DNA of 43,561 bases from Chiloscyllium plagiosum. Taxonomy: Eukaryota. A model generated the notes under the pieces. That model made no database searches, had not been told where the DNA came from, and saw nothing but the letters and a program-made list of their open reading frames with translations. Below are positions 1,200-42,262 of the stretch, piece by piece. A program made the translations under genes and the position numbers. The stretch is taken from positions 11,444,241-11,487,801 of the forward strand of contig NC_057753.1 in the NCBI RefSeq assembly GCF_004010195.1. Reading direction: 5' to 3'. Within the stretch, counting starts at the first letter, position 1, and each line of letters begins with the position of its first letter.

Positions 1200-1294
1200 T
1201 AGAGCTGAAAAATGTGTTGCTGGAAAAGCGCAGCAGGTCAGGCAGCATCCAAGGAGCAGGAGAATCGACGTTTCGGGCATAAGCCCTTCAGGAA
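1200..1294 (-). mobile_element. Short Penelope-like (PLE) non-autonomous element, family A, with degenerate hammerhead core
   Basis: Reverse complement CCTGAAGGGCTTATGCCCGAAACGTCGATT; same body as copies at 20520, 26812, 28047. Confidence 0.75.
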
Positions 1295-1297
1295 GAG

Positions 1298-2302
1298 CGT
1301 GCAGGTCCATTGTACCCTGAAGTTGCTGCACAGGTGGATAGAGTGGTCAAGAAGGCATATAGTATGCTTGCCTTGGATGGGGTATTGAGTATAAGAGCTG
1401 GCAAGTCATGTTAAAATTGTACAAGACATTGTTTCGGCCGCATTTAGAATACTGTGTATAGTTCTGGTCGCCACATTGTGGGCGGCATGGTGGCACAGTG
1501 GTTAGCACTGCTGCCTCACAGTGCCTGAGACCCGGGTTCAATTCCTGCCTCAGGCAACTGACTGTGTGGAGTTTGCACGTTCTCCCCGTGTCTGCGTGGG
1601 TTTCCTCCGGGTGCTCCGGTTTCCTCCCACAGTCCAAAGATATGCAGGTCAGGTGAATTGGCCATGCTAAATTGCCCGTAGTGTTAGGTGAAGGGGTAAA
1701 TGTAGGGGTCTGGGTGAGTTGCGCTTCGGCGGGTCGGTGTGGACTTGTTGGGCTGAAGGGCCTGTTTCCACACTGTAATGTAATCTAATCATTACCAAAA
1801 GGAGGTGGACACTTTGGAGTGGGTGCAGAGAAGGTTTACAAGGATGTTGCCTGGTATGGAAGGTGCGAGCTATGAAGAAAGGTTGAGTCGGTTCGGTTTG
1901 TTTTCATTAGAAAAATGAAGATGTGGGGAGACCTGATTGAGGTTTACAAAATCAAGAAGGGTATAGACAGGGTGGATAGAGACAAGCTTTTTCCCAGAGT
2001 GAAGGATTCAATAATGAGAGGTGTCACTTTCAAGGTGAGAGGTGGAATGTTTAAGGGGGATACACGCGGCAAGTACTTCACACAGAGGGTAGTGGGCATC
2101 TGGAGCGCGTTGCCAGCACGTGTGGTAGAGGCAGGCACGGTAGATTGATTTAGGATGCGTCTGGACAGATGCATGAGTCGGTGGGGAGCAGAGGGATACA
2201 TATGTTTAGGAATTGGGCGACAGGTTTAGACAGTACATTTGGATCGGCTCAGGCTTGGAGGGCCGAAGGGCCTGTTCCTGGGCTGTTAAATTTTCTTTGT
2301 TC
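1298..2302 (+). mobile_element. CR1 LINE 3' fragment interrupted by a SINE
   Basis: GDLIEVYKI...YFTQRVV translation; 3' tail GGCCGAAGGGCCTGTT. Confidence 0.85.
1479..1790 (+). mobile_element. tRNA-derived V-SINE (HE1-like), full length
   Basis: A box TGGCACAGTGG, B box GGTTCAATTCC, central TGTGTGGAGTTTGCAC domain, LINE-shared tail and TAATC repeats. Confidence 0.9.
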
Positions 2303-4258
2303 TTAAAGGGACAGCTGGAAAATGAGAAGCCTTCAAAATGAGAGAACATGAGTCCAGATACAGAATATTCCTGACGGGGAAAAAGGAAAGGTTGGTAGGT
2401 GTAGGGAATGCTGGGTGACCAGAGAAATTGAGATTTTGGTTAAGAAAAAGAAGGAAGCATATGTCCGGTATCGACAGGAGAAACAGAAAGGCAGGAGGAG
2501 TCTACTTAAGAGGGAAATCAGGAGGGCAAAAAGGAGACATGAGATTGCTTTGGCAATTAGAGTTAAGGAGAATCCAAAGGGCTTTTGTAAATATATTAAG
2601 CTATACAAAAAGGTAACTAAGGAGAGAATAGGTCCACTCAAAGGTCAGCAAGGCAGCTTATGTGTGGAGCTGCAGGAGATGGGGGAGTTACCAATTGAGT
2701 ATTTTGCATCAGTATTTACTGTGGAGAAGGACGTGGAAGATATAGAATGTAGGGATATAGATGGTGACATCTTGAAAAATGTCCAGATTACAGAGGAGGA
2801 AGTGATGGATGTCTTGACATGCATAAAGGTGGATAAATTCCCAGGACCTGATCAGGTGTACCCTAGAACTCTGTGGGAAGCTAGAGAAGTGATTGCTGGG
2901 CCTCTTGCTGAGATATTTGTATCATCGATAGTCACAGGTGAGGTGCCGGAAGACTGGAGGTTGGCTAACGTGGTGCCACTGTTTAAGAAAGGTGGTAAAG
3001 ACAAGCCAGGGAACTACAGACCAGTGAGCCTGACCTCGGTGGTGGGCAAGTTGTTGGAGGGAATCCTGAGGAACAGGATGTACATGTATTTGGAACGGCA
3101 AGGACTGATTCGGGATAGAAATCATGTCTCACAAACTGGATTGAGTTTTTTGAGGAAGTAACAAAGAGGATTGATGAGGGCAGAGCAGTGGACCTTATCA
3201 ATGTAGACTTCAGTAAGGCATTTGACAAGGTTCCCCATGGGAGACTGATCAGCAAGGTTAGATCTCATGGAATACAGGGAGAACTAGCCATTTGGATTCA
3301 GAACTGGTTCAAAGGTAGAAGACAGAGGGTGGTGGTGGAGGGCTGATTTTCAGACTGGAGGCCTGTGACCAGTGGAGTGCCACAAGGATCGGTGCTGGGT
3401 CCACTACTTTTCAGCATTTAAATAAATGATTTGGATTTGAACATAAGAGGTATAGTTAGTAAGTTTACAGATGACACCAAAATTGGAGGTTAGTGGACAG
3501 CGAAGAGGGTTACCTCAGAATATAACGGGGTCGTGATCAGATGGACCAGTACACTGAGGAGTGTCAGATGGAGTTTAATTCAGATAAATGTGAGGTGCTG
3601 TATTTTGGGAAAGCAAATCTTAGCAGGACTTCTACACTTAATGGTAAGGTCCTAGGGAGTGTTGCTGAACAAAGAGACCTTGGAGTACAGGAGTTGTGAG
3701 GTCATGTTGCGGCTGTACAGGACATTGGTAGGGCCACTTTTTTGGAATATTGCGTGCAATTCTGGTCTCCTTCCTATTGGAAAGATGTTGTGAAACTTGA
3801 AAGGGTTCAGAAAAGATTTACAAGGATGTTGCCAGGGTTGGAGGATTTGAGCTATAGGGGGAGGTTGAACAGGCTGGGGCTGTTTTTTCCCTGGCGCATC
3901 GGAGGCTGAGGGGTGAATTTATAGAGGTTTACAAAATCATGAGGGGCATGGATAGGATAAATAGACAGGGTCTTTTCCCTGGGGTCGGGGAGTCCGGAAC
4001 TAGAGGGGCATAGGTTTAGGGTGAGAGGGTAAAGATATAAAAGGGACCTAAGGGGCAACTTTTTCATGCAGAGGTTGGAGCATGTGGTGGAGGCTGGTAA
4101 AACTACAGCATTTAAAGGCATCTGGATGGGTATGTGAATAGGAAGGGTTTAGAGGGACATGGGCCAAGTGCTGGAAAATGGGACTAGATTAGGTTGGGAT
4201 AACTGGGTTGGCATGGGCGAGTTGGACCGAAGGCTCTGTTTCTGTGTTCTATGACTCT
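2303..4258 (+). mobile_element. CR1 LINE ORF2 (tether + RT) to 3' UTR, frameshifted
   Basis: PEDWRLANVVPLFKKG, PGNYRPVSLTS, DFSKAFDKV, GVPQGSVLGP, FTDDTK motifs. Confidence 0.92.
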
Positions 4259-4315
4259 TCTTCAGGACTCTGACATTGTTCGTGAAAACCACTTCAGTAA
4301 TCTGCCCAGTTTTAA

Positions 4316-5299
4316 GACCATAATACGCAGGAGCAGAATGAGGCCATTTGGCCCATTGAGTCGTCTGCACCGGTTTCTCGACCCCATTCTGCTGCCTTCT
4401 CCTTGTAACCCTTGATCCCCTTACTAATCAAGAACCTATCTATCTCTGCCTTAAATTCCCTCAATGGCTTGGCCTCCACAACCCTCTGCAGCAGTGAGAT
4501 CCACAGATTCACCAAAATCTGGCTGAAGAAATTCCTTCTCATCTCAGTCCTAAAGGGCATTCCTTCACCTTGAGCCTGTGTTCTCGGGTCCTAGTCTCTC
4601 ATTGTAGTGGAACCATCTTCTCCACATCAACTCTATCCAGTCATAGAGTCTCACAGCACGGAAACAGACCCTTCTGTCCAACCATGTCGACCATAATCCC
4701 GAACTAAACTAGTCCCACCTGCTTGTGGTTGGCCCAATATCCCTCTAAATATTTATTATTCATGTACTTATTCACATGTCTTTTAAACGTCATGACTGCA
4801 CCCACATCCACCACTTCCTCTGGAGGTTCATTCCAAAACGAACCACTCTCTCTGTAAAAACGTTGCCCCTTGTTTTGTTTTTAAATCTTTCTGTTCTCAC
4901 TGAGCTCAGTGGTCAGCGCTGCTGCCTCACAGCACCAGGGTCCTGGGTTTGATTCCCACTTGTCTGTGCAGAGTTTGCACATTCTCCCCGTGTCTGCGCG
5001 GGTTTCCTCCAGTTGCTCCGGTTTCCTCCCACAGTCCGAAGTTGTGCAGTTTAGGTGAATTGGCCATGCTAAATTGCCCGTAGTGTTAGGTGCGTTAGTC
5101 AGGGGTAAATATAAGGTAGGGGAATGGGTTTGGGTGGGTTTCTCTTCGGAGGGGCGGTATGGACTTGTTGGGCCGAAGGGCCTGTTTCCACACTGTAGAG
5201 AGAGAATCTAATGTCCGCTAGTCTTGAAATCCGTCAGCTCGGGGAAAAGACCCCTGCCCATTCACCTTATCAATACCCCGCATGACTTTATAAATCTCT
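4316..5299 (-). mobile_element. Two CR1 3' fragments on the minus strand with a plus-strand V-SINE (~4900-5212) inserted
   Basis: ORF 4312-4560 FRTEMRRNFFSQ; CR1 tail reverse complements; SINE consensus. Confidence 0.8.
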
Positions 5300-5426
5300 G
5301 TGATGAAGAGTCATCTGGACTCGAAACGTTAGCTTGCCCTCTCTGCGGGGACGCTGCCTGACCCACTGTGATCTCCAGCATTTGTTGTTTTTGGGACAGA
5401 TTCCAGCATCTGCAGCAATGTGCTCC
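5300..5426 (+). mobile_element. PLE-like short element with hammerhead-like core
   Basis: GTGATGA-A-GAGTC-ATCTG-GACTC-GAAA-CG-TT (first core C replaced by G), followed by CCAGCATCTGCAG body. Confidence 0.7.
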
Positions 5427-9065: not shown

Positions 9066-9172
9066 CAGATGAAGGGCTTAGGCCCGAAACATCGACTCTC
9101 CTGCTCCTCGGATGCTGTCTGAGCCACTGTGCTTTTCCAGTGCCGGATGCTCCATCTGCAGTCCTCGCTTTC
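9066..9172 (+). mobile_element. PLE family A element with mutated hammerhead, in the predicted 5' UTR of the zinc-finger gene
   Basis: CAGATGA-A-GGGC-TTAG-GCCC-GAAA-CA-TC; lies downstream of acceptor TTTTTACAG (9027). Confidence 0.7.
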
Positions 9173-9404
9173 ACGTCAATGACAGTCACTCGATCCATTG
9201 GGACCGCAACAATTTTCAGCTATGAGTCTGTGAGAAGGAGCAAAGCTCTTTGGTTCCTGTTTCGGTCAATTTTCAGCATCAGGGAGACTGGATGAGACGC
9301 CGTACTGTTAGAGCGCACTGAGTGTGGAGCCTGAAACAGTTATACGGCCTGGGAAGAACGAGGAGGGGCTGCACACACGTTTGTGTGCAGCTGAAGCTTC
9401 AGCC

Positions 9405-10590: not shown

Positions 10591-10593
10591 ATT

Positions 10594-13612: not shown

Positions 13613-14884
13613 TGATATTGATGATAATCGGGTTCTGGCAATAACCCGCCACTGCCCTCATCTTATCCATCAATTTGATAAGGGGTCACTTTGCCTGGGA
13701 GGCCTCAATATCCACCTCTGAACCTGACAAGCCCAATCATTCACAGAGACTGAGAGAGCGCTTTTGAGATCTGGAAAGTCTCCCTCCTTTTCCCCCCCAC
13801 CCCCGCAACTCCACCGAATTTCCTGGGGAAACCGCAACTTGCCAACCTTAATGAGAGGCCGTGTGCAACGCCAAATAAAAGAACTGAGCAATTGTTAAGT
13901 CTCCGCGACGTTTGCCTCCGCACTGTCACAGGGAGAGCATGCGCAAGGGACATAAAAAGCGAGGAAGAACATTCATTTTATTCCGAGCTATTCAACCCAA
14001 CCTAGATATTGGAAAAGCCTCCTGGTGCTGAAGCTCTTGCCTTGTCTTCTCAAACAAGTGCACCAAAGTAGCCTAGTTTGAGAAGACAAGGCAAAAGCAG
14101 GGGGTAACGAAGATACCTAGGTATGGAAAACCTCCCAGTGATCACCTGCAAGGGAACTAGGCCTCACCTTGGAGATCCACTAAGGCCCCCTTTCATAAAA
14201 TTTATCTTATACCCTGAGAAAGAGCCAAGTAAGGTGATGTGTTGTGTCGGGCGAGGTACAGACGCTGTCGGGTTTGACAGGAAAAGGAGAGCGTCATCTG
14301 GGTAAAGAGTGATCTTCTGACCCCTGACCTCACCTCCGGGGTGACCACATTGGGTTCCCCCTGGATAGCCTCCGCCAGCGGCTCAATCACCAGCGTGAAC
14401 AGCCATGGTGAGAGGGAACAACCTTGCCGGCTGCCTCTACCAATACTGAAATGATCAGACCTCGCGCTGCTAGGAAGGACCGCTGCCATAGGGCCCGCTA
14501 TATAGCACTTCCACCCATTTGGTGAAAACCCCACCAAGACCAAAGTGCTCCAGAACATAAAAAGCTATGGCCATTCTATCCGGTCAAACGCCTTCTCAGC
14601 ATCTCGGGAGACCACCAAGCCCAGCATCGATCTCTGCTGGCACACCAGACCACGTTCGGCACACTTTTGATATTACTAGAGGACCTACGGGCCTTTAACA
14701 AAACCTGTCTGATCCTGCTTTACAATCAAGGGCAACACCTTCTCCACTTCTGCCTTAGACAGAGTTTTAAAATCCGAGTTTAGCGGTGAGATGGGTCTGT
14801 ACGAAGCGCAGTCCTCTGGGGCTTTCCCTCTCTTGAGAATGAGGGGTATCAGCTCCTCTCAAAGACGACGCCATGCCACTAAGA

Positions 14885-15280
14885 ATTCTTGCGAGTTTCT
14901 TTGTTTTGCCTTCCATACATACAAAGATGGACAGCACTTTGACTGGGATAACACACACACCCTAGGACAGGTGAAACAAAGACGTGCACGAGGATTCTTA
15001 GAGGCATGGCACTCTAACCAGAACTCCATCAATAAACGCATCGATTTTTTTTTTTCCCTGTCTACCTTCCCTTAAAAAAAAACAGAAATGACATCACCCA
15101 CCTTAAGAGACCAAGATCTAGAAATAGAGAGGCAGGACCTACCACCAGCACTTCACTGGAGATTCTCGCTGATTATATTACCTAGTCATGATGATGAAAT
15201 GTCTGAAAACAAACCTTCCCACTCACTGAGCTAACTTACATACTTATCATCAACCTGAGCTATAAATCTTCTCAAAAAAT
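14885..15280 (+). mobile_element. Penelope-like element 3' end (GIY-YIG C-terminus + pseudo-LTR, degenerate HHR)
   Basis: HFDWDNTHTLGQ...RARGFLEAWHSNQNSINK; tail CTGAGCTATAAATCTTCTC similar to that at ~34500. Confidence 0.8.
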
Positions 15281-15643
15281 TGCTAGTTGTTTAGATTGTG
15301 GGGAAGTACGCAGGGGACTCCTAGACATCCTGTCCACTGTGGGATCCATGAGACAATGAGTCTCCCCCTATGATCATATGGCGCACTCCAAGGGCCACTG
15401 ACCTGGAAAGTCCATCCGTTAAAAATTTAAGGGGGTAGTCAACATTCTGGATATTGTATTCCTCACCACGTATTCGAGCTTTAAAGATCACAAACCATCT
15501 GTATTCATCCTTAATTCGGTCTAATAACTGAAATGGGACATTCTTCTGGACAAGAATGGCCACTCCCCTGCTTTTTGAGTTAAAAGACAAAAGAAACACC
15601 TGGCCGTACCCTCCCTGCTGCAACTTTAAATGCTCCTTGTCAT

Positions 15644-16469
15644 TGTTATGATGGGTGTAGAGGTACTGTACCTTTAAGAGAGTTAAAAAGCTAGCAAGGA
15701 CTTGGAGAAGCACAGAGAGTCTGGAACAAGGCAACAATGTAACATTTGGTCGAAGTTAAAAATCACACAACACCAAGTTATAGTCCAACAGGTTTAATTG
15801 GAAGCACTAGCTTTCGGAGCGCTGCTCCTTCATCAGGTGGTTGTGTCCAAATCATTTGGTTGAAACAGCTAGAGTAGATGGGTTGCCATGAGACACAAAC
15901 AAATTCAAATTTGGCCAAACAGTTTAAATTATGCTCCAAGATACCAAACTCCAATCAAGTTTGAATTTGGTTTTAACATTATCAAAATACTAATGAAACG
16001 ATCCAATGTTTTGGGGTATAAAACCAAATGTTTTTTGAACAGTTGAGGGAGAACTGCCAAAGACCAATAGGCTGCTAGTTTAAGAGCTCTCATAAAGGTA
16101 CTGTCTGTGGAAGAAGCTTGTACAGCAGGACATAGAAACCGACCTGGAAAGAGAATCTATGGAGGAAATTCAGCAAAGCTGACTGGTTTTGAAATATAGT
16201 TAATTTATTTGTAAATCAGAATCTGGATTTTTAAAATCAGAATAGTATTGAAGAGGGGGAGGTAAAATATAGGTTTAACAGAAACCAATTGTAAATAATT
16301 GTTAGTCGTTATCCTCTGTTAGACTTAAAGAATAAAGTTATTAATTTTTACTTTAGTGACTTTGGGGATAGTTGGTCGTCTCTTGAATTTTAACAGATTA
16401 CAGCACAGGGTGAATCTTTTCTGTGTTGCTGGTTTAAATTAGCAGAGGGGTTTACCCCATGTCATAACA
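15644..16469 (+). mobile_element. Solo LTR (probably Gypsy-type) inserted in the L1 endonuclease domain
   Basis: Termini TGTTATGA...TCATAACA, 4-bp TSD TCAT/TCAG, AATAAA at 16331; L1 sequence resumes on both sides. Confidence 0.85.
15805..15839 (-). ncRNA. Minimal hammerhead ribozyme (PLE family B)
   Basis: CAC-CTGATGA-A-GGAGC-AGC-GCTCC-GAAA-GC-TA-GTG: intact core with stems I and II. Confidence 0.8.
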
Positions 16470-18131: not shown

Positions 18132-18720
18132 GGGTGGTGTGGCGGCTCAGTGGTTAGCACTGCTGCCTCACAGCACCAGGGACCCGGGTTCGATTCCAGC
18201 CTCGGGCAATTGTCTGTGTGGAGTTTGCACATTCTCACCCGATACGGGCTGGGTGCTGGCAGGTGGGACTAGATTGGGTTGGGATATCTGGTCAGCATGG
18301 ACGGGTTGGACCAAAGGGTCTGTTTCCATTCTATGACTCTATGTCTGTGTGGGTTTCCTTCCACGATCCAAAGCTGTCTGGTCAGGGTGTATTGGCCATA
18401 CTAAATTACCCATAGTGCCCAGAGATGTGCAGGTTAGGGTGGATTGGCCGTGCTAAATTGCCCATAGTGCCCAGGGTCATGCAGATTAGGGTGAATTGGC
18501 CATGCTAATTATCCCCTGGTGTTCAGGGATGTGAAGGGTAGGTGCATTAGTCAGGTGTAAATATAGGGTAGGGAAATGGGTCTGCGTGGGTTACTCTTCA
18601 GAGGGTTAGTGTGGACTTGTTGGGCTGAAGGGCCTGTTTCCACACTGTAGGGATTCAGGTCCTGATGAAGGGCTTACATCCGAAACATCGATCTCCTGCT
18701 CCTCAGAAACTGCCTGACCT
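18132..18720 (+). mobile_element. Composite V-SINE with CR1 tail insert and ~52-bp internal tandem units, followed by a family A HHR element at 18661
   Basis: SINE head, repeated GGCCATGCTAAATTGCCCATAGTG-like units; CTGATGAAGGGCTTACATCCGAAAC. Confidence 0.8.
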
Positions 18721-18724: not shown

Positions 18725-20012
18725 GTACTGGTGTAAATCAAAACCTGCCAGGAAATGTTGATTTTTAAAAATTTGGTCTGAAAGATTAGTGAAATTTATC
18801 TCTCAGAATTGGAATTTATCATGCTTGGAATTTTATTTTCTGGCCAGAGTGAACTGTCAAATACTGTTTTAGTCAAATATACTCTTTAATTCCAGCTGAC
18901 ACAATTTTCTTGTACTTTGTGAAAATTGGCATTTTGGAAATGCAAACTTGTTTGAACTAGATTTTGGATTAGTGATGCTGGAAGAGCACAGCAGTTCAAG
19001 CAGCATCCGAGGAGCAGTAAGATCGGCGTTTCGGGCAAAAGCCCTTCATCAGGAATAAAGGCCCAAAACGTTGATTTTACTGCTCCTCGGATGCTGCCTG
19101 AACTGCTGTGCTCTTCCAGCACCACTAATCCAGAATCCGGTTTCCAGCATCTGCAGTCATTGTTTGTACTGAACTAGGTTTTGGTCAAGTGTTCTAAAAT
19201 CTGTAAAATAAAACTGATGAAGATGTGGCGGTGACATTGAACGACATTCGGGTATTGAACGAGATGTGGGGACACCCATCCTTGTCAGTGCTAGTGTAAA
19301 TAGGCTGTAACCATCATGGAACACCCGTTCTGTACCCTCTGTATAGGTCAGGGAACTAAGACTGTGAACGAAATCTTGAGCAACCTGCAACTTGACAGTG
19401 CTAATTACAGGAGAAAGTGAGGGCTGCAGATGCTGGAGATCAGAGCTGAAAATGTGTTGCTGGAAAAGCGCAGCAGGTCAGTTCAAATAGACTAGTGCTA
19501 ATTACAGCTCCAGTAAATGAAACGGAAAGATCTGATTGGATCTTTGGGGTGGTCTCACTCCATCAGCCATGTTGACCCCTTGGGCTGGTGTGGACAGAGA
19601 CAGGGGATTGGCCAGTGCTGTAGAAAATTTCAGAAAGAGACCTTCAGTATTGGCCAACGTTATTTCACTACTTATCACGGGAAACAGCCAGTAAAACTGC
19701 TTCGAAATTACAATTCAGCTTGAGGTTTAGAGGAGCCTCAATTGTCTGAATTTCGGAGTATCCGAAGAAGATCTCAAGGTCCAGCTTGAGATACGTGTAT
19801 TTGATTTACCTGTACTGAAGAACATGTGAAAATGCTGGCAAGAACAAAGAAACACAAGCAGCTCAAGCGACTGGATATTTTTTCGGTAAGGGTTAATTTC
19901 ACAGCCCTGAAGTGTTTTACAGGGTATTCCCATCACTTTACTGAGCTGTTCATGAACAAAATGGCCGACAAAGTAAACGCATGCATGAGGCAGTGCTTCT
20001 GTCTTTGGAGTC
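18725..20012 (+). pseudogene. Candidate endogenous viral element: decayed Mononegavirales L (RdRp) N-terminal region
   Basis: Colinear YLSELEFIMLGIL (18797), WGHP (19267), TGDWPVL (WP 19609), SEEDL..FDLP (F 19800), DKA-like..SDW (W 19872), SKRMHEAVL (19972); needs frameshifts and stops. Confidence 0.55.
18961..19169. mobile_element. Inverted (head-to-head) pair of family A PLE elements
   Basis: ~75-bp arms 18960-19036 / 19062-19138; TGAACTAG duplicated at 18953 and 19170. Confidence 0.8.
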
Positions 20013-20999: not shown

Positions 21000-21172
21000 A
21001 GATAATTCTCAATGTATAATTTCAGTTACATCACACTGTAAAATTTTGCTATAAATTCTGTGCCTTAGAATTGTGTCCTCCACAACCACCTGATGAAGGA
21101 GCGTCACTCCGAAAGCTAGTGTGCTTCCAATTAAACCTGTTGGACTATAACCTGGTGTTGTGTGATTTTTAA
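21000..21172 (+). mobile_element. PLE family B pseudo-LTR with HHR (21087-21121)
   Basis: 15-bp TSD CCTCTGT(A/T)TACAGGA at 20985 and 21173; CACCTGATGAAGGAGCGTCACTCCGAAAGCTAGTG. Confidence 0.85.
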
Positions 21173-23146: not shown

Positions 23147-23424
23147 ACAAGAATTCATTCTCTTGTACAGAACAGGACTGACCACTGTTAATTTTCAATA
23201 ATGATTTGTTTCTTATGGGTAAAACTTCATCTCATCCCTCCAGGGTCAGGTCAGACTATGACACAGAATCTCGTTAGACAGTTAGTTACAAATTTCTCTC
23301 GATAATGACTTTTAGGGTAGTTAACGCTCAATGAAAATGGCTTCCAGGGCCACAAAATTACTTCCACAATATCTCCTTTTTTCTCGTTTGAGATCAAAAG
23401 AATAGGTCCGGAGACTCAAGAGAG

Positions 23425-23749: not shown

Positions 23750-24240
23750 TAATTTTGTCTCTCAGCAACCCAGGTACTGCTAACTGCTGGACCAAATGTT
23801 ACGTTGTAAATTCTTCAGCACTCTGTGTGTTTGCTAAGTTCTTCAACTCTCTTCAGGGTACGGTATACATCTACACTTTCATAGTAATGGCAAAGAACTG
23901 CTCAGTCTCGTTTATACCTATCTTGGTATGAGTCTAAGGTTATTTGAATGGGGAGGAGTACGTGTAGTAAATGAGGAGAAGCACATGCCCCAGATAGCAA
24001 TGAGTAGTCCAGGAGAGTGGTAGCCAGGAGTAGGCATCATGGCCGCAAATAAAATAGGTGTCATCGATTTTCCTGCTTCTCGGATGCTCCCTGACCTGCT
24101 GTGCTTTTCCAGCACCACTCTAATCTTGACTCTGATCTTCAGCATCTGCAGTCCTCACTATTGCCCATGTCCTGTGGAAATTAAATCCTCTCTGTTCCCA
24201 CAAAGCTCCGTAACCATGGGCCACGCCAAAAGCACAATGA
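23750..24240 (-). pseudogene. env: ERV env remnant (SU C-terminus, cleavage/fusion region), interrupted by a PLE piece at ~24062-24165
   Basis: TYFICGHDAYSWLPLSWTTHCYLGHV...HTKIGINETEQFFAI resembles gamma-type Env YFxCGxxAYxxLPxxWxGxCYLG plus a decayed RxKR site. Confidence 0.82.
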
Positions 24241-24467
24241 GAGACAAAAAAATACCTGCAGATGCTGGAATCCAAAGTAGACAGGCAGGAGACTGGGAGA
24301 ACACAGCGAGCCAGGCAGCACCAGGAGGCGGAGAAGTCGACATTTCGGGTTAACCCTTCTCCAAACCCGAAATGTCAAAAACACAACGAGGGTCAGTAAA
24401 TATATTTGCAGATTTTCCTTTTGTCAAGATGCAAGCACGTTGATCCCTGCATTAGTTCCAAGGTAAT

Positions 24468-24940: not shown

Positions 24941-24952
24941 GAAATAGTGTTC

Positions 24953-25529
24953 ACTATTCAAAAGGGCCACAACACACTGCAGTACACCAGAACTGCAAAA
25001 AGAAGAAGAGGAACACCTATGCAAGGTATTCGCCAAAAACGGATACCCGCGCAACTTCATCAACAGATGCCTAAGAGAAAGACCACGGAACGAGGACATA
25101 CCACAACCAAAAGGACTAGCCACACTACCATACATCAGGAGCATCTCGGAACTGACTGCTAACTACTGCGACCCCTAGGACTCATAACGGCACACAAACC
25201 AACAGCCACGCTCAGACAACAACTCACCACAACGAAGGACCCGATACCCAACATGAGAAAAACTAATGTACAGCCAGGGAATTCCTAGAGGCATGGCATT
25301 CATCCACAAACTCCATCAACAAACACGTCGACCTGGACCCAATATACCAACCACTACAGCGGACAGCTGAAACTGACAACCGGAAGCGGCAGAGACAGAC
25401 CACTATAAACACCGGAGGAAACATCAAAGAAGCGCTTCGCAGGAGGCTCCCAAGCACTGATGATGTCGCCTAGCCAGGGGACGAAACGTTTGCAACAAAA
25501 ACTTCCAGCTCGGCGAACACAACCACAAC
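24953..25529 (+). mobile_element. Penelope-like element 3' fragment (RT thumb/linker, internally deleted GIY-YIG, pseudo-LTR with HHR 25454-25493)
   Basis: LFKRATTHCS...NGYP...LPYIRSISE...REFLEAWHS; GCA-CTGATGA-T-GTCGCCT-AGCC-AGGGGAC-GAAA-CG-TT-TGC. Confidence 0.9.
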
Positions 25530-26080
25530 AGTGTCGGTATGCCAGACATAGGCTCAGGATGCAGTGTATAACTTAAGTTATTTTTACAGCGCTGTTGCTT
25601 CAACTCCTTTTTCAACGGTTCGTTTCCTACACTTTCCAACATATCGCCCACTTCTATTGCCATTTGGATGTACAATACTCAACTTGTTTTAATGGATGGT
25701 TCAGGTGAACATTAGTCAATGTAGCCAAGCTTCAGTTTAATCAGGAGGCAATGCCACAGATCACTGACAATGTATAAAGGTAGAAAAACCAATCAAACTT
25801 GCCAATTATTTCTGATTATGTAATTCAGGACTAATACAAATAGTGTAAAATATTGACTAATGTAACCATATTTTCTCATTGAGAGATGGAAACTGTACAA
25901 ATGACTGAGACGTTTCACTGTTAATTAATAAGAACAAATGGATTTTAATGTCACAAAAATGATTCAAATCTGCTCAGGGTTGTACACATAAAATTATATC
26001 AGGACTGTCCTATTATGCGCATATTCCACTCAGCTATTACATTATAAGTTTTCTTCCTACTGAGTATGAGTTTTGTTAAG

Positions 26081-26375: not shown

Positions 26376-26382
26376 TAATCTA

Positions 26383-26900
26383 TGATTTGGAGATGCCGGT
26401 GTTGGACTGGGGTGTACAAAGTTAAAAATCACAGAACACCAGGTTATAGTCCAACAGGTTTAATTGGAAGCACACTAGCTTTCGGAGCGACGCTCCATTA
26501 AACCTGTTGGACTATAACCTGGTGTTGTGTGATTTTTAACTTTGCACAGCCATCTGATGAAGGAGCGACTCCAAATCCAAACCTGGTAGCATCCTTGTAA
26601 ATCTTTTCTGCATCCTTTCAAGTTTCACAAAATCCTTCCAACAAGAGGGAGACCGGAATTACTAGCTTTCGGAGCACCGCTCCATTAAACCTGTTGGACT
26701 ATAACCTGGTGTTGTGTGATTTTTAACTTTGCACAGCCAACTGATGAAGGAGTGTCGCTCCGAAAGCTAGTGTGCTTCCAATTAAACCTGTTGGACTATA
26801 ACCTGTTGTTCCTGAAGAAGGGCTTATGCCCGAAACGTCGATTCTCCTGCTCCTCGGATGCTGCCTGGCCTGCTGTGTTTTTCCAGCCCCACATTTTTCA
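26383..26900. mobile_element. Cluster of PLE pseudo-LTRs in mixed orientation with HHR cores at 26741 (family B) and 26812 (family A)
   Basis: Three direct and one inverted ATTAAACCTGTTGGACTATAACCTG; CTGATGAAGGAGTGTCGCTCCGAAAGCTA; CTGAAGAAGGGCTTATGCCCGAAACGTC. Confidence 0.85.
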
Positions 26901-27794
26901 ACTCATAGCCTGGTGTTTTTTAACTAAAATAAACTAGAAATTCATTTAATCAAATCCCAATGTTATAATATAAAACCTGCACAGTTTCCAACGCTGAAAT
27001 TCATTACAATTACCTGGTTCCAGTCTCTCAATTTAAATCCCAAATTTGATTCTTTAAGCAGTTTTGATCAGACATTGCTCATTCATATTGCGACAGGCTT
27101 AATTGCAAATGATTGCAACTGCATGGACAAAAGTCTTGCCTACTCACATTCATTTTGTTTAGTTTTGTTCATGTTAACAAAATGTGTCTAATGCACAAAT
27201 AATGATTAATCCAAGGACACAAATATTAACCATAGTGTTAAGTGCATGTAACTTTGTTACATGCGTTTTACAAAATAATGTTGAACTGAAACTTCAATTC
27301 TCAGTGAGGAAGGGAAATCTAAACAGAATAAAGCTATGGCCTCACAAATGAAATGCAGCAGTTTCTCAAAATTATCTGGAAACAAACAAGTCCAAAACAT
27401 TTTTTTAAAAATTTCTGCTCGTATCATTTTCTGAAAACAATATTTTTGGTTTGGGATATTTAAATCCATCTTTATGCTTTCAGTTTTACATTTTTAATTA
27501 AATTATCTAAAGTTCACTGTAATGCCTCCTCTTAATGAGTACATGTTAAAGTCTGAGGTGACCTTCCTCAACGTTAGGCTTAGATTATTTTTTCAAGAAA
27601 TGAGCAGACACCTGTTTTAACCTGAGGTCAGGATGCTGAAAAGTTAATGTCACTGTACTATACCATAAGATCGAATTTATTAATTACAAAACAAACGTGC
27701 TTCAGAAAACTTTGATAGGAAAGCAGTGTGCAGATTGATTCTGATTTGGTTACAGTGCTACTGCTTTTACCTCCTTTAGTCAATCCTTTGACTA

Positions 27795-28770
27795 GGACAA
27801 AGAACAAAGAAAATTTAACAGCCCAGGAACAGACCCTTCGGCCCTCCAAGCCTGAGCCGATCCAAATGTACTGTCTAAACCTGTGGAAAAAGCTTGTCTC
27901 TATCTACCCTGTCTAGACCCTTCATGATTTTGTAAACCTCAATCAGGTCCCCCCTTAATCTTCTTTTTTCTAATGAACATAAACCCAACCCACTCAACCT
28001 TTCTTCATAGCTAGCACCTTCCACACCAGACAATATCCTCGTATTCCTGAAGAAGGGCTTATGCCCGAAACATCGATTCTCCTGTTCCCTGGATGCTGCC
28101 TGACCTGCTGCGCTTTTCCAGCAACACATTTTCAGCTCTGATCTCCAGCATCTGCAGCCCTCACTTTCTCCTCAATATCCTCGTAAACCTTCTCTACAAC
28201 CTCTCCAAAGCATCCACATCCTTTTGGGAATGTGGTGATCAGAAATGTACACAGTATTCCAAATGTGGCCGACCCAATGTCTTGTACAATTTTAACATGA
28301 CTTGCCAGCTCTTATACTCAATACCCCATCCAATGAAGGCAAGCATACTATATGCCTTCTTGACCACTCTATCCATCTGTGCAGCAGCCTTCAGGGTACA
28401 ATGGACCTGCCCTCCCAGATCTCTCCGCCCATCAACTTTTCCCAAGGCTCGTCCGTTCATTGTGTAATTCACTCTAGAATTAGTCTTGCCTAAATGCATC
28501 ACCTCACATTTGTCTGGACTGAAATCCATCTGCCACTTTTCCACCCAACTCTCCAGTCTATTTATATCCTCCTGTATTTGGACAGTCCCTTATGTTTTCT
28601 GCTATTCCACCAATCTTTGTGTCATCTGCAAACTTGCTGATCATACCAACAGTGCCCTCTTCCAGATCATTTATGTATATCACAAACACCAGTGGCCCCA
28701 ACACTGACCCCTGTGGAACAACACTGGTCACCTTTCCCCATTTCGAGAAACTCACTTCAACTACTACTCT
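27795..28770 (-). mobile_element. CR1 RT to 3' end with a family A HHR element (28044-28172) inserted
   Basis: VPQGSVLGP, FADDTK; insertion flanked by 13-bp TSD CAATATCCTCGTA (28031, 28173). Confidence 0.9.
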
Positions 28771-30110: not shown

Positions 30111-30189
30111 CTTGTACAGAACCAGACAAGTTAGAAGTGGACAAGACAGCAGACACTGAAACAGAGTGTATGGTGCCAGAAAAAGCATA

Positions 30190-30420
30190 AAGTTACAAAT
30201 TCCACAACACCAGGTTATAGTCCTTCATCAGGTGGTTGATGAAGGACCGTCGCTCCGAAAGCTACTGCTACCAATCAAACCTGTTGGACTATAACCCGGT
30301 GTTGTGGGATTTGTAACTTTGTACACCCCAGTCCAACACCGGCATCTCCAAATCAGAAAAAGCACAGCAGGTCAGGCAGCATCCGAGGAGCAGGAGAATT
30401 GATGTTCCAAGCAAAACGCT
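30190..30420. mobile_element. Inverted family B PLE pseudo-LTR pair nested in a family A-like element
   Basis: CACAACACCAGGTTATAGTCC vs GGACTATAACCCGGTGTTGTG; TGATGAAGGACCGTCGCTCCGAAAGCTA. Confidence 0.75.
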
Positions 30421-31639: not shown

Positions 31640-32420
31640 TTCCACCCCAGACACTAGGACCCCATCGAGTACACGCACCAGTATCTTGCAGCTGAACTGT
31701 ACCCGCGTTTCTCTCTGCATTTTGGCCCTGCATGTTCAGGAAGCGACAAAAGCAGCAATCTCGTCAATTTGAGGGTGGGAGTCCGAAGCAGGGATGGTAT
31801 GTTTGGGGGACTGAGCGCAGCCGCGATTTTTATTTTTAGGGGGCTGATCTTTAAAATGTATCGATGCAAATCCTATCCCACAATGGGTCGGCATATTCAC
31901 CCCCTCGGTGTTAGTCCTCCAGTCATCAATCTTTTCCAACTTAAAGGACCCTCCATAAGGCCAGTTGCCATGGGACAACCCGTATAGATTAGATTAGATT
32001 CCCTACAGTGTGGAAACAGGCCCTTCAGCCCAACCAGTCCACACCGACCCTCCGAAGAGTAACCCACCCAGACCCATTCCCCTACGCCTAACACTATGGG
32101 CAATTTAGCGTGGCCAATTCACCTGACCTGCACATCTTTGGACTGTGGGAGGAAACCGGAGCACCCGGAGGATACCACGCAGACACGGGGTGGTATGTGC
32201 AAACTCAACATAGACAGTCGCCCGAGGCTGGAATCAACCTGGGACCCTGGTGCTGTGAGGCAGCAGTGCTAACCACTGAGCCACTGTGCCACCCCTGGGA
32301 AAAGGCTGGAGGGAAAAGGAATGATATTTCTCTACCATCACCTGTCTCTTTCCAAACAATATTGGCTGGTGATTCTGACGGAACCAGGGAGTCTCCTACC
32401 TTAATTGTGCCATTAGCGAG
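31640..32420 (-). pseudogene. gag: ERV gag matrix remnant split by a V-SINE (31986-32294)
   Basis: VPSESPANIVWK...[SINE]...GNWPYGGSFKLEKIDDW resembles the MA motif WPxxGSFxL. Confidence 0.65.
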
Positions 32421-32575
32421 TTTTGAGAAGATTTGTAGCTCAGATTGAGGTTCTGGATGTAGGTTTGCTCGCTGAGCTGGAAGGTTCATTTTCCGACGTT
32501 TCGTCACCATCCTCGGTAACATCTTCAGTGAGCCTCCGGACGAAGCACTGGTGGCATGGCCCGCTTTTCTATTTT
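32421..32575 (-). mobile_element. Penelope pseudo-LTR (family C) with HHR 32495-32528
   Basis: CTGAAGA-T-GTTACC-GAGGAT-GGTGAC-GAAA-CG-TC on the minus strand. Confidence 0.82.
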
Positions 32576-33270
32576 TTGTCCTATCCAAGAACTTTTGGGA
32601 AATTACAAACATTGCATCCACGCTCTCTGTAACTACATCTTTCAGGATCCTAGGGTGCAAGTAACCAGGGCCAAGGAACCTGTCTTCCCTTGAGCCTCAG
32701 GAGTTTTTTCCTAATACAGCTTCTTATGATGGTACTTAATTCGACCACTTTTATTCTTTCGTATTAATGGGATGTTCAAACTATTTTCCACCAGCTAGTG
32801 CTTCCAATTAAACCTGTTGGACTATAACCTGGTGTTGTGTGATTTTTAATTTTGTACACCCCAGTCCAACACCAGCATCTCCAAATCATTCCACCATAAA
32901 GACTGATGCAAAATGTCTGTTCAACTCCTCCACCATTTCCATGCTCCCCATAACTATCTCCCAAAATAATCTTCTTGTTGTTGTTGCATTTCATTCACAT
33001 GGTTTTGCATCCTCGTCGAGTGGACAAACAGATGGAGACTGTCCTTCTCAGCAGGACATGATTTACTTGTCCCCCAGAGACAGCCCTTCCTTAGAGTTCA
33101 GCGACCCCCCCATCGGTCTGCAGGTGAATGAACAAAGAAAAAACAAAAAAAACCCTGAAACAGAGCCGGACGCTGGCGCCCCGGTCAATTTCTCAAGGCC
33201 TACTTTAAATTAAATGTACACCCGCAGCGATCTTCCCAAATCTTGCCTCAGCATTATTTCCCAAGCTGGG

Positions 33271-33460: not shown

Positions 33461-33898
33461 TGATTTGCAGGAGCTGGTGTTGGACTGTGGGAGTGTGTAT
33501 AGGAGTGCCTGTGTGTGTGAGAGAGAGAGTGTAAAGGGCTCTAGGTCTGTGAGAGGTTGCATTGTGTGTGTGCATAGGAGTGCCTGTTAATTCATTTTTT
33601 TTAGAGTTCATTTTTGTTAAAGTTCACTTTAGAATGTAAATTTTAAAAAGATATTTTGCGATTTATAGATGAAAGAAGAGAAACTAAAATGGTCATTCTA
33701 ACAGATGAGAGACTTAATAGACAATCAAGATATTTTTCACTGTATAATTTCAGTTACATCTCACTGTAAACTTTTGCTATAAATTCTGTGTCTTATAATC
33801 GTGTCCTCCACAATCACCTGATGAAGGAGCGTCGCTCCGAAAGCTAGTGCTTCCAATTAAACCTGTTGGACTATAACCTGGTGTTGTGTGATTTTTAA
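33461..33898 (+). mobile_element. PLE family B element with intact HHR (33815-33849)
   Basis: 14-bp TSD CTCCCTTCTTGTCA (33447, 33899); CAC-CTGATGA-A-GGAGC-GTC-GCTCC-GAAA-GC-TA-GTG. Confidence 0.88.
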
Positions 33899-33977: not shown

Positions 33978-34526
33978 CCGAGCTGGGAATTTGTGTTGCA
34001 GACGTTTCGTCCCCTGTCTAGGTGACATCCTCAGTGCTTGGGAGCCTCCTGTGAAGCGCTTCTGTGATCTTTCCTCCGGCATTTTGGTTTGAATCTGCCG
34101 CTTCCGGTTGTCAGTTCCAGCTGTCCACGCTACTAAGGATAGCTGGTCGTGTTGTTTCGTGGCTAGTTGGTGTTCATGGATGCGGAGCTTTAGCTTTTAG
34201 TGTTTTGTGCAGTCCTTGCATGGGATTTTGTACACTATGTTGGTTTTGCTCATGCTGGGTATCGGGTCCTTTGTCCTGGTGAGTTGTTGTCTGAGAGTGG
34301 CTGTTGATTTGTGTGCTGTTATGAGCCCTAGTGGTCGCAGTAGTCTGGCTGTCAGATCGGAAATGCTCTTGATGTACAAGATCACAGAAGCGCTTCACAG
34401 GAGGCTCCCAAGCACTGAGGATGTCACCTAGACAGGGGACGAAACGTCTGCAACACAAATTCCCAGCTCGGCGAACAGAACCACAACAACGAGCACCCGA
34501 GCTACAAATCTTCTCCCAAACTTTGA
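33978..34526. mobile_element. Penelope element with inverted pseudo-LTRs, two HHRs and a GIY-YIG-proximal fragment
   Basis: 13-bp TSD TCTTATAATTTCA (33965, 34527); ~90-bp inverted repeat; NIVYKIPCKDC; GCA-CTGAGGA-T-GTCACCT-AGAC-AGGGGAC-GAAA-CG-TC-TGC. Confidence 0.92.
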
Positions 34527-36340: not shown

Positions 36341-36814
36341 CAATTGGCAAACACATGGCAATGTGGTACCACAATGAAGTTATAGGCTTTGCTGTGAAAA
36401 AAGCAGAAAGGACATGCGTTGTTTAAATGGTGACGCATTGGGATGTGGAGAAATGGGGACTGCTGATGGTGGGGGTCGGAGTTGAAAAGTGTGGTACTGC
36501 AAAAGCACAGCAGGTCAGGCAGCACCTGAGGAGAGTTAACATTTCAGGCATGAGCTCTTCATTAGGACCGATGTCTGGACAAGGGGCCTCAGCGTCCTTC
36601 TACATCAGTAAATGCCAGTTGTCAGACAAGCAATGATCAAGGCAAGTGACATATTAGCAAGAGGAATTGTGTTCAGAAGTGGGGATGTCTTCCTGCAGTT
36701 ACGGGGATATTTAATATATTCAAGGCTGAGTTCATCTGATTTTTGAACAACAAATAAATGGATGTTTGTGGGGGAAGGCAAGAACATGGTTTTAAGACCA
36801 GTACAGAACAGTTA

Positions 36815-40177: not shown

Positions 40178-40365
40178 AGCTTAAAAATGTGTTGCTGGGA
40201 AAGCGCAGCAGGTCAGGCAGCATCTAAGGAGAAGGGCTGAAGAAGAAGGGCTTATGCCCGAAACGTCGATTCTCCTTCTCCTTTGATGCTGCCTGACCTG
40301 CTGCGCTTTTCCAGCAACACATTTTTAAGCTCTGATCTCCAGCATCTGCAGTCCTCACTTTCTCC
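40178..40365. mobile_element. Family A PLE element with inverted 5' copy and HHR-like core (~40238-40268)
   Basis: Perfect 15-bp TSD CAATAAAACATTCAG (40163, 40366); inverted arms; core has a duplicated GAA. Confidence 0.88.
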
Positions 40366-40674
40366 CAATAAAACATTCAGTCACTCAAGGCCCAACCCCC
40401 AGTCTCCCAGCCTGTCAACCATCCAGACACAGAGTGTTGTCATAGCAGGGAATCAAACAAGAAAAATGAAACAAAATTATAAATAAATGCACGGTTGGTG
40501 CTTGTGCTTAAAGTTTGTTCAATAGGAAGTAAATCACAAATCGGGGTCTCCCAGGATTCTTATAGTGCCCTAATTGAAGAATTCTCTCTCCCTTACAAAT
40601 ATATATTAATATCCAGCTATGATTTACAACAATATTTACATCAACAAAAATAAAGCATCTGTTATCAAATAGAC

Positions 40675-41690
40675 ATGGAGATATACAGGACAGAAACAGA
40701 CTTCTCAATCCAACACATCCATGCTGACAACATATCCTATGTAAATCTAGTGGTCATGATTTGGAGATGCCGGTGTTGGACTGGGGTGTACAAAGTTAAA
40801 AGTCACACAACACCAGGTTATAGTCCAACAGGTTCAATTGGAAGCACACTAACTTTTGGAGCGACGCTCCTTCACCTGATGACTATCACCTGATGAAGGA
40901 GCGTTGCTCCGAAAGCTAGTGCTTCCAATTAAACCTGTTGGACTATAACCTGGTGTTGTGTGGTTTTTAAACTATGTAAATCTAGTTCCATTTGCCAGCA
41001 TTTCGCCCCTATCCCTCCAAACCCTTCCTATTCACACACCCATCCAGATGCCTTTTAAATGTGATTGTACCAGCCACTTCCTCTGGGAGCTCATTCTATA
41101 CACGCACCACCATCTGTGTGAAAAACCTGCCCTTTAGATCCCTTTTAAATCTTGCCATTCTCACCCTAAACCTAAGCCCTCTGGTTTTGGATGCCCCGCC
41201 GTGGGGAAAAGATCTTGTCTATTTACCCTGTCCATGCCCCTCATTATTTTATAAACCTCTATCAGGTCATCCCTCAGCCTCCGACGCTCCAGGGAAACAA
41301 CCTCATCCTATTCAGCCTCTCCTTATACCACAAACCCCGGTGTCGTCCTTATCAATCTTTTCTACACCCTTTCACGTTTCACAAAGTTTTACCTATCCTA
41401 TAGCAGGGAGACCAGAATCGACTGAAATACTGTATTCGAAAAGTGGCCTAACCAATGCCCTGTACAGCTGCAACATGACCTCCCAACTGCTATACCTAAT
41501 GCATTCAATGGGCCAAATGGCCTCTTTCTGCACTGCAGGGGTTTCGTGATTTTATTCTGTGTCACAGTCAATTTTAGTCACAATCTCTGGTATATGGTAT
41601 GTCAGGTGATACCAGAATTGCACGCAATACTCCAAAAGTGGTCAAACCAACTTTCTGTCCAGCCGCAGCATGACCTCCCAACACCAATAC
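40675..41690 (-). mobile_element. CR1 3' fragments
   Basis: Reverse complements of CR1 C-terminal coding and tail sequence. Confidence 0.8.
40752..40971. mobile_element. Family B PLE inverted pseudo-LTR pair, intact HHR 40887-40921
   Basis: 15-bp TSD CTATGTAAATCTAGT (40737, 40972). Confidence 0.88.
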
Positions 41691-41699
41691 TCCAATGCA

Positions 41700-42262
41700 C
41701 TGGTTAGCACTGCAGCCTCACAGCGCCAGGGACCTGGGTTCAATTCCAGCCTCAGTGACTGTCTGTATGGAGTTTGCACATGATGAAGGGCTTTTGCCCA
41801 AAACGTCAATTTTCCTGCTCCTCGGATGCTGCCTGACCCGCCGCGCATTTCCAGCACCGCTCTAATCTTGACTCTGATTTCCAGCATCTGCAGTCCTCAC
41901 TTTTGCCTACATTTCCCCCATGTCAGCGGGGGTTTCCTCCGGGTGCTCCGGTTTTATCCCACAATTGCCTGTAGTGTTAGGTGCATTAGTCAGGGGTAAA
42001 TGTAGGGGAATGGGTCTAGGTAGGTTGCTCTTCGGCGGGTCGGTGTGGACCTGTTGGGCCGAAGGGCCTGTTTCCACACTGTAAGTAATCTAATCTAATC
42101 CAAAGATATGCAGGTCAGGTGAATCGGCCGTGCTAAATTGCCCATAGTGCTCGATGCATTAGGCAGAGGGAAATGGGTTTGGGTGTGTTACTCTTCGGAG
42201 GGTCGGTGTGGACTTATTGGGCTGAAGGGCCTGTTTCCACACTGTAGGGAATCTAATCTAAT
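41700..42262 (+). mobile_element. Composite V-SINE with a nested degenerate family A element (~41781-41910) and a second SINE tail
   Basis: SINE head, TGATGAAGGGCTTTTGCCCAAAACGTC, two TAATC tails. Confidence 0.82.

Follow-up and report, generated by a model that had tools for sequence, protein, structure and literature searches.

Most of a 43,561-nucleotide stretch of Chiloscyllium plagiosum DNA (the window) is studded with small repeats. Every family of them probably represents terminal repeats (pLTRs) with hammerheads from endonuclease-positive Penelope-like elements (PLEs), inserted as short dead copies. As suggested by the PLE literature, a PLE protein would nick DNA and begin reverse transcription from one of two positions located 80-130 nt downstream of the hammerhead core. 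Synthesis would usually break off soon, mostly on reaching the hammerhead's front edge, and in some cases an inverted arm would be added. Any role of the hammerhead would lie in intact master transcripts, through dimer- or protein-assisted cleavage. The kind has been known since 2014, when minimal hammerheads in the pLTRs of metazoan PLEs were described as mostly single copies of probably truncated PLEs, with opposite-strand pairs too (Cervera and De la Pena, 2014, PMC4209133). The window adds shark examples from several lineages; sharks are not named in the results and discussion of that paper.

The strict pattern CTGANGA-N10-22-GAAASSTH matched 12 times in the window, against a shuffle mean of 0.11 and maximum of 2. 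A structure-aware scan, which is blind to three C1 copies with a mismatch in stem II, gave 9 matches versus 0.03 expected, or 13 versus 0.62 with one core mismatch allowed. Because the copies belong to about five repeat lineages, these counts are not independent events. Every motif coordinate in the initial annotation, which had described three families (A, B, and C), was correct on re-scan, and its assignment of the motifs to PLE-type minimal type I hammerheads with a palindromic stem III is supported by the anatomy of 24 anchored sites (11 A, one A-related "D", seven B, and five C; anchoring is off by 1 nt in two of the 24 rows, both degenerate regardless). The CUGANGA / GAAA / UH core is intact in 14 of these sites, 12 of which also carry the 4-nt palindrome (ACGT or AGCT) without a stem III loop; core, palindrome, and a stem I of at least 2 bp coincide in 9/24 sites, and stem I is 2-3 bp in 9 of the 12 sites with intact core and palindrome. 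All 14 core-intact sites have the G10.1-C11.1 pair, and the unpaired insert after A9 is 1 nt in 13 of them and 4 nt at 40237. The cut triplets predicted earlier (GUC, CUA, and GUU) are consistent with the anchored sites. Stem I pairing needs correction in places: B at 26741 and A at 40237 have no adjacent stem I, C at 32528 opens with an A-G mismatch, and the family A stem I is only 2 bp, as in D. virilis, compared with 4-5 bp in Schistosoma (PMC4209133). The listing of families had also overlooked lineage D (5299..5425, +, borders approximate), which is ~65% like A downstream and whose hammerhead (5300-5330) has one core mismatch, a 5-bp stem II, and ACGT.

Could these motifs have arisen by chance, or as a side effect of coding or repeat sequence, and not be ribozymes? 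No Rfam hammerhead model matched the window at E<=1, the drawn active dimer lies 9-17 kcal/mol above the minimum-energy dimer in 7/7 copies, and the family C core sits within codons. The energy model, however, ignores the folded core, and the excess of strict matches over shuffles speaks against chance. Moreover, stem II differs in sequence among the five lineages, and all retain its pairing, the extra base before G10.1, the G10.1-C11.1 pair, and the palindromic 15.2-16.2 pair; these features, the type I core, and the missing stem III loop are shared with the minimal hammerheads of PMC4209133, as are several families per genome, mostly in single copies, and opposite-strand pairs. We therefore give the chance reading almost no credence. 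Judged by sequence, the motifs are genuine sequences of minimal hammerhead ribozymes, with self-cleavage predicted.

In family A, the hammerheads at 20520 and 26812 are intact, the one at 28047 has ACAT, and the one at 19052(-) has ACGC and lacks U16.1. The first (20520-20547) fronts a stub in a LINE fragment (20520..20615, +) with a 6-bp target duplication, around which DNA reads gave an empty-site joint, 20513-20616, with 6 shared letters; the second (26812-26839) belongs to a stub inside a B copy (26811..26908, +). The ACAT motif (28047-28074) lies in a tailed stub with a 13-bp target duplication (28044..28172, +), and the ACGC motif (degenerate, 19025-19052, -) in a head-to-head inverted insertion (18955..19159) with a 7-bp flanking repeat. 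Another inverted insertion (40178..40365; 15-bp target duplication) contains the hammerhead at 40237-40267(+) that is without stem I, and in both inverted insertions the right arm alone has a tail. Further stubs lie at 1197..1293 (-; 2-nt deletion at the core/stem II, no tail) and 24062..24165 (+; starting inside the palindrome, with tail), and degenerate ones at 9066..9175 (+; a C2H2 zinc-finger ORF lies downstream), 18660..18720 (+; ACAT, broken stem II), 36444..36567 (-; tail), and 41780..41909 (+; tail). A 3' fragment (19409..19481, -) has the tail and no hammerhead, the copy at 30358-30416(-) hosts an inverted B insertion, and an old degenerate A-like stub lies at 24256..24364(-). Among the 11 core-bearing A copies, the palindrome was lost by CpG-type changes in five and by another change in one more. 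Selection on RNA structure, as originally proposed, thus fits the differences between lineages but not the inserted copies, which decay: structural selection would apply to master elements, and the scattered single copies, which have no dedicated same-strand partner, decay neutrally.

Family B cores lie at 15836(-), 21090, 26741, 33818, and 40890. Stubs are found at 15755..15852 (-; intact hammerhead 15808-15836, short inverted tail piece, 12-bp target duplication with one mismatch) and 32794..32888 (+; starting in the palindrome, with tail and an 8-bp flanking repeat). Inverted insertions occupy 30188..30353, within the A copy noted above (11-bp target duplication), and 40752..40971 (15-bp target duplication, tail on the left arm alone, intact hammerhead 40890-40918, +). 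The copy at 21000..21172 (+; intact hammerhead 21090-21118; 15-bp target duplication with one mismatch) includes 90 nt of upstream parent sequence, and a long insertion at 33461..33898 (14-bp target duplication) consists of an inverted tail plus a microsatellite-rich piece, then upstream parent sequence and an intact hammerhead (33818-33846, +). A cluster of duplicated, inverted, and partly tandem B sequence surrounds a LINE fragment (26382..26810) and holds the core-intact hammerhead at 26741-26769(+).

Together, hammerhead elements make up ~12% of the readable bases of the window, as measured with rough borders, and several properties of the A and B insertions resemble those of ordinary truncated PLE insertions. 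First, target duplications scoring at least 10 flank 8/27 hand-bordered units (A 2/14, B 5/9, C 1/4), compared with 6/1500 random pairs, and are absent from the other 19; at A and B they are typically 11-15 bp, with an overall range of 6-15 bp. Second, in all six inverted A or B insertions with both ends readable, only one end has a tail. Third, 3' ends fall into two classes 33-39 nt apart, the tail being optional. Inverted arms, one-ended tails, duplications of 6-15 bp, and partial tandems are likewise found in PLE insertions, which are described as having 5' truncation, an inverted pLTR, an optional 30-40-bp tail, and a target duplication (Craig et al., 2021, PMC8557442; Arkhipova et al., 2013, PMC3846280). 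By comparison with those accounts, nearly all A and B insertions here are stubs of 95-220 nt, and in most of them the 5' end coincides with the front edge of the core instead of the cut site (+28). The initial proposal of non-coding elements mobilised by PLE enzymes holds for the stubs themselves.

Family C supplies the coding link. Its cores lie at 25457, 34034(-), 34415, and 32528(-). In the C1 copy at 24948..25530(+), a broken RT-thumb/GIY-YIG fragment, 85-94% identical to protein P0001 in three tblastn pieces, leads into an intact hammerhead (25457-25490); an inverted C1 insertion (33978..34526; 13-bp target duplication) has a GIY-YIG fragment (34092-34388, -) and intact hammerheads at 34001-34034(-) and 34415-34448(+). 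The second lineage, C2, comprises a copy at 14870..15281(+), with an endonuclease C-terminal fragment (14875-15048; tblastn 59% to P0001, E 3e-14) and a degenerate hammerhead (15169-15203), and a stub at 32419..32585 (-; upstream border approximate) whose core-intact hammerhead (32495-32528) has the A-G mismatch at the base of stem I. Seven homologues of C, 69-89% identical and all from carpet sharks, gave RT matches and one weak GIY-YIG match; the Pfam GIY-YIG match on P0002 has an E of 0.027, and the C coding sequence is broken in the window. As RT/GIY-YIG sequence is continuous with the repeat, the tie between C and GIY-YIG coding sequence first noted in the initial annotation is borne out. 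The C-terminus of P0001 crosses the hammerhead core within the last codons of the ORF, and an ATG at the start of stem II opens a second frame in 3/4 translated C copies. By this overlap of ORF and hammerhead, as opposed to a tree, C is classed as Poseidon-like. In the anole PAc Poseidon (Frangieh et al., 2024, PMC11167929), the ATG is also at the stem II start, the cut site follows it by 26 nt (28 in C), and the longest copies end 111-118 nt after it (~105 in C). PAc cleavage was shown in vitro and is protein-assisted; cleavage of C is predicted.

For A and B, the evidence for PLE proteins is indirect, and in the window none of their copies adjoins a coding region. Two protein searches found no PLE ORF beginning with the A-frame peptide, the matches being host or unrelated models. 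A metagenome contig (L058) contains a hammerhead 34/36 identical to that of B, with AATAAA behind it, ~750 nt downstream of a same-strand ORF in which a CxxC linker and a GIY-YIG-like motif were recognised by eye (relatives P0010/P0011); Pfam gave no match in this ORF, and only the 36-nt hammerhead is common to L058 and B. In the whale-shark gene model P0014, an inverted A pair is joined to a segment that, when read antisense, matches the "FLD" region of RT in P0010/P0011 (0/2000 shuffles each), although the segment was chosen by eye, only 2/5 PLE targets were significant, and the model may splice across unrelated repeats. By the CxxC linker, an indirect indicator used in place of a tree, A and B are probably Neptune-like.

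The initial annotation had taken A and B to be retrozyme-like. As non-LTR retrozymes, they would consist of tandem units that dimer cleavage releases and that circularise before integrating again. Known retrozymes form tandem repeats of 150-450 bp, carry canonical hammerheads, and are expressed in circular form (Cervera and De la Pena, 2020, PMC7229834; Li et al., bioRxiv 10.64898/2026.07.22.740005); A and B share with them a non-coding nature, a type I hammerhead, and a probable dependence on PLE enzymes (PMC7229834), and the bioRxiv study, whose single chondrichthyan has retrozymes, traces these elements to pLTRs. We found one head-to-tail B junction (26684-26810), which is partial, has a period of 97 nt, and lacks a hammerhead in its first unit. 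None of 12 TRF tandem-repeat rows contains a hammerhead, and no head-to-tail joint crosses an A or B hammerhead among the best 15 of 337 joints from two DNA runs; by these two measures, complete hammerheads in two consecutive tandem units are absent from the window. Nor did we find a canonical type I hammerhead with a 6-bp helix I and loop contacts of the kind retrozymes carry (PMC7229834), the motifs being minimal and the copies dispersed as single or inverted stubs. Finally, 5' ends fall at the front of the core and not at +28, as cleavage-defined units need, and in one RNA run B transcripts are polyadenylated and continue past the cut site, where read ends do not accumulate. A retrozyme origin of A and B is thus very improbable, and we abandon that part of the earlier interpretation.

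A dedicated short non-autonomous element of ~130 nt, derived from a pLTR, with its own masters and mobilised in trans by PLE protein, would account for other properties of A and perhaps also of B. Each of the 11 core-bearing A copies has its start between about -10 and +6 relative to the core, the three starts fixed by flanking duplications fall at 0 to -3, no upstream sequence beyond a few bases is shared between A copies in the window, upstream loose ends agree poorly in DNA contigs (0.34), and A reads are very abundant. Nevertheless, these reads show little strand bias (~1.4:1), unlike those of a dedicated transcript, and an upstream consensus does exist in RNA (401 reads, agreement 0.45), its last 8 letters matching the arm at 19052. 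The ATG at +46 is kept in 7/8 translated A copies, and its frame stays open through the tail despite a 3-nt indel that separates two A subfamilies. P0014, moreover, puts A beside antisense RT. Similarly built B copies reach upstream by 90 and at least 115 nt, and an upstream loose end common to 458 B RNA reads matches 33703-33728 at 23/26 letters; B is continuous with a longer non-coding upstream parent. We consider the short element unlikely and prefer truncated PLE repeats.

The ends of B transcripts bear on how such stubs arise. In one poly(A) single-cell library (run X21), whose reads may come from any B copy at least 88% alike, transcripts run through the uncut hammerhead and are polyadenylated ~30 nt past the cut site. 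An ATTAAA signal at 21130-21135(+) precedes the family-wide addition sites 21147 and 21150, where oligo-A loose ends number 368 and 478 reads, respectively. Read ends do not pile up at the B cut site in this run, although a product of 30 nt would be lost from a single-cell poly(A) library; PAc RNA likewise shows no ends at its cut site (PMC11167929). Processed B RNA, which terminates at +57 to +60, stops short of both genomic 3' ends (+82 and ~+121), and therefore the 3' repeat of the polyadenylated transcript cannot be the template. For B, this geometry favours a tentative idea, to which we give rather less than even weight: that the stubs are run-off ("strong-stop"-like) cDNAs instead of random truncations, and the uncut B hammerhead a tail-removing switch. 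With the 5' repeat of the element mRNA as template, PLE RT would initiate at an internal point 80-130 nt past the hammerhead and run off the RNA 5' end just upstream of the core, and the uncut hammerhead, ~30 nt before the poly(A), could detach the tail from the very mRNA that carries it.

The role of the PLE hammerhead is called still unclear in PMC8557442. A B poly(A) site between the cut site and two genomic 3' ends, combined with 5' ends at the hammerhead front edge, is in our view worth a specialist's time, as this end geometry leads to a direct test of which RNA PLEs copy and what the hammerhead does. The Clec2 3'UTR hammerhead (PMC6765202) is like that of B in having its cut site just upstream of a poly(A) signal, such that cleavage would remove the tail; the Clec2 motif is a split, host-domesticated ribozyme, whereas B is a retroelement repeat with predicted cleavage.

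The strict hammerhead pattern matched the window 12 times, compared to 0.11 matches in shuffled sequence, and a scan that also required stem II gave 9 matches versus 0.03, which leaves a negligible chance that the motifs are chance matches; the motifs lie at the positions given in the initial annotation. The matches represent about five lineages rather than 12 independent events. In 24 sites anchored by hand (a listing with 2 degenerate rows 1 nt off, and not a statistical covariation test), the core was whole in 14, ACGT or AGCT was also present in 12, and a stem I of 2–3 bp was present in addition in nine. Stem II comprised 4 bp in family A, 5 bp in family B and in the lineage at 5300, 3 + 3 bp flanking a mismatch in C1, and 6–7 bp in C2. 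In the usual numbering of hammerhead positions, G10.1–C11.1 was present in all core-intact sites and a single unpaired base followed A9 in 13 of 14. PMC4209133 lists both as features of the minimal hammerheads of Penelope-like elements (PLEs), with which the window motifs also share the core. The window elements belong to this known kind. Rfam at E ≤ 1 gave 10 matches in the window, none to hammerhead models, and its miRNA-like matches were the inverted insertions; a pattern scan of viral contigs gave 0 matches. The A-related lineage at 5299–5425, with a different stem II, has one copy in the window and also begins at the core.

Among 11 core-bearing A copies, ACGT was kept in five, CpG-type changes were found in five, and one had ACGC. 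The inserted copies are decaying, and the earlier suggestion of selection on RNA structure can thus apply to master elements only; it fits the differences between lineages, and the decay of inserted copies counts against it for the copies themselves.

The hammerhead-bearing stubs are, with good probability, pieces of the terminal repeats (pLTRs) of autonomous PLEs: the PLE would insert by nicking, with reverse transcription primed internally, and the inserted stubs would then be left to decay. First, flanking duplications scoring at least 10 bordered 8 of 27 hand-bordered units, compared to 6 of 1500 random pairs; the 6-bp duplication at 20520 was weaker, but reads and contigs that join across the empty site confirm it. 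Second, a head-to-head inverted build was common among A/B insertions. The 3′ end of each family occurs in two versions, separated by 33 nt in A and by about 39 nt in B. Both ends could be read in six inverted A/B insertions, and in every one of them the 3′ extension was on a single end only. This one-ended extension corresponds to the PLE "tail" as described in PMC8557442 and PMC3846280, and PMC11167929 ties the tail to two reverse-transcription start sites. A copy of A is nested within B at 26811 and a copy of B within A at 30188, so the activity periods of the two families overlapped. The nesting could reflect targeting of pLTR sequence or chance; joints of a B end to an A start occurred in 42 contigs of one DNA run and 37 of the other, with more than 110,000 matched contigs in each, a frequency indistinguishable from chance. 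A GT/GA microsatellite-rich stretch (33480–33590) lies inside a B insertion bounded by a target duplication and probably represents part of the parent's long non-coding region in inverted orientation.

All 11 core-bearing A copies begin within about −10 to +6 of C3, with no common upstream sequence, and 7 of 9 core-bearing B segments (26554 and 26741 being duplicates) begin within −9 to +4, the other two being longer. The cut site is at +28, and the only stubs starting nearby are those at 24062 and 32794, each a few bases upstream. Because starts fall at the front of the core and not at the cut site, most of the copied RNA was uncut, and copying stopped at the hammerhead front. In both DNA runs, contig depth for B was ~4- to 11-fold lower upstream of the core than over the 3′ part, a drop that may reflect divergence as well and is not a copy number. 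It is possible, though doubtful, that the stubs arose as run-off copies made on the 5′ repeat of PLE mRNA. A search of the openly available literature listed nothing on shark PLE hammerheads, neighboring poly(A) sites, or run-off copies. An initiator-like motif at −4 of A was given no weight, as it is too frequent and had been spotted only in hindsight.

The initial annotation had regarded A and B as retrozyme-like. PMC7229834 and bioRxiv 2026.07.22.740005 define retrozymes as tandem repeats whose consecutive units each contain a complete hammerhead. Their presence in the one chondrichthyan of the latter study speaks for this reading, so that arrays may occur elsewhere in the genome; a partial head-to-tail B junction at 26684–26810 also speaks for it. 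However, none of the 12 tandem repeats in the window contains a hammerhead, the first unit of that junction, the sole one of its kind, begins downstream of the hammerhead, and the best 15 of 337 joints from the two DNA runs included no head-to-tail joint across a hammerhead. These results run counter to the proposal, and it is very improbable that A and B are retrozymes. The nearest same-strand intact pair, 26741 and 26812, has mismatched palindromes. For 7 of 7 copies tested, the active dimer as drawn was never the lowest-energy fold, by energies that ignore the core and cannot decide activity; an unfavored dimer agrees with the activity described in PMC4209133 and PMC11167929, which is low or assisted by protein. 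Inverted hammerhead pairs would fold into long hairpins.

Family C was said to be linked to RT/GIY-YIG coding sequence, and this link is upheld by broken coding pieces found by tblastn (24951–25467, 34021–34388 on the minus strand, and 14875–15048) and by the last codons of the query, the carpet-shark PLE protein P0001, which cross the hammerhead core. The ORF piece at 24948–25175 is 69–89% identical to seven shark proteins, which gave RT matches plus one weak GIY-YIG match, and the nearest named proteins to the window's PLE fragments come from carpet sharks. Pfam searches of six short C fragments returned nothing relevant. C1 and C2 differ by a 3-nt indel that keeps the frame, and an ATG located where stem II begins opens a second frame in 3 of 4 copies translated. 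The layout of ATG, stem II, and ORF is the same as in the anole Poseidon PAc (PMC11167929), and on this anatomy C may be labeled Poseidon-like. The C2 copy at 14870–15010 starts with 42 nt of its own endonuclease coding sequence in inverted orientation.

RNA reads came from run X21, a single-cell poly(A) library of which about 2% was read, with 4632 reads matched at 88% likeness. Mate-direction depth was 1250 versus 128 at the B hammerhead and about 1.4:1 for A. Read parts running off the matched sequence as oligo-A were found behind 21147 (368 reads) and 21150 (478 reads), 12–15 nt past an ATTAAA (21130–21135); the DNA there contains no A run, and GT-rich sequence comes next. Because these ends follow ATTAAA without a genomic A run, some RNA of the B family carries a poly(A) tail added about 30 nt beyond an uncut hammerhead, as observed in one sample with reads that may stem from any B copy. 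The 3′ tail extension of B was reached by 309 reads that continued past these sites. No pile-up of read ends was present anywhere in X21, although a poly(A) library would lose a cut 30-nt product. B copies may serve host genes as poly(A) sites.

No A or B copy in the window is joined to a coding parent. Two B copies have 90 nt upstream of the core in common, and 458 RNA reads extend B further upstream, with a consensus that matches 33703–33728 at 23 of 26 letters; judged from these sequences, B clearly has a longer parent. A pattern scan of metagenome contigs gave no shark DNA among the matches listed (at least 120 loci), and among these only contigs L027 and L058 were similar to the window, over 36 nt. 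PLE-like RT/EN matches were present at 17 of the 120 loci listed, and a poly(A) hexamer in 9 of 75 distinct downstream sequences among the matches listed, a count without a control. Because parts of stem II and of the palindrome are prescribed by the scan pattern, these loci were kept out of covariation. The L058 hammerhead is 34/36 identical to B. An ORF on the same strand, ~750 nt upstream of it, contains a CxxC linker and a GIY-YIG-like motif, and the relatives of this ORF are two proteins (P0010 and P0011) and no shark protein; L027 has a region in common with L058, plus an RT fragment. L058 is an analogue of B's parent, not the parent itself. Both contigs are marine and have AATAAA about 17 nt past the cut site, and their similarity to the window ends at the hammerhead.

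Of 8 A copies translated, 7 retain an ATG at +46. Protein searches gave no PLE ORF beginning with the A peptide, returning instead host gene models P0008 and P0009 and two unrelated repetitive proteins. The A peptide lies within or at the end of the models P0008 (Hemiscyllium, H2A-like) and P0009 (Chiloscyllium, PDZ protein), a possible exonization of A stubs or annotation noise. It is unlikely that family A is a short non-autonomous master. In the whale-shark gene model P0014, also returned by the A-peptide searches, residues 55–121 are an inverted A pair, and the antisense of residues 2–38 fits the RT "FLD" region of P0010 and P0011 more closely than any of 2000 shuffles; its fit to three other PLE targets was not significant. 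This order would suit a repeat placed upstream of an RT ORF.

The window consists of vertebrate DNA rich in repeats, and it includes LINE reverse-transcriptase fragments and two N runs (about 5660–6200 and 21680–21890, with approximate borders; 751 bases in total). A C2H2 zinc-finger ORF occupies 9312–10067 on the plus strand; a GC-rich stretch at about 6490–6800 may be the promoter of this gene, and a degenerate A copy at 9066 may lie within its exon, given that a pyrimidine tract ends in CAG at 9027, about 40 nt before the copy. Pfam matched neither the ORF piece at 21628–22473 (minus strand), presumably Tx1/L1-type, nor that at 43158–43559 (plus strand), which we take to be a CR1 ORF1 esterase-type fragment. 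An abundant repeat, which we assume to be SINE-like, forms inverted pairs at 30566–30933 and 22546–23499, and its 3′ part is expanded as 52-bp tandem repeats at 18380, 23532, and 34931.
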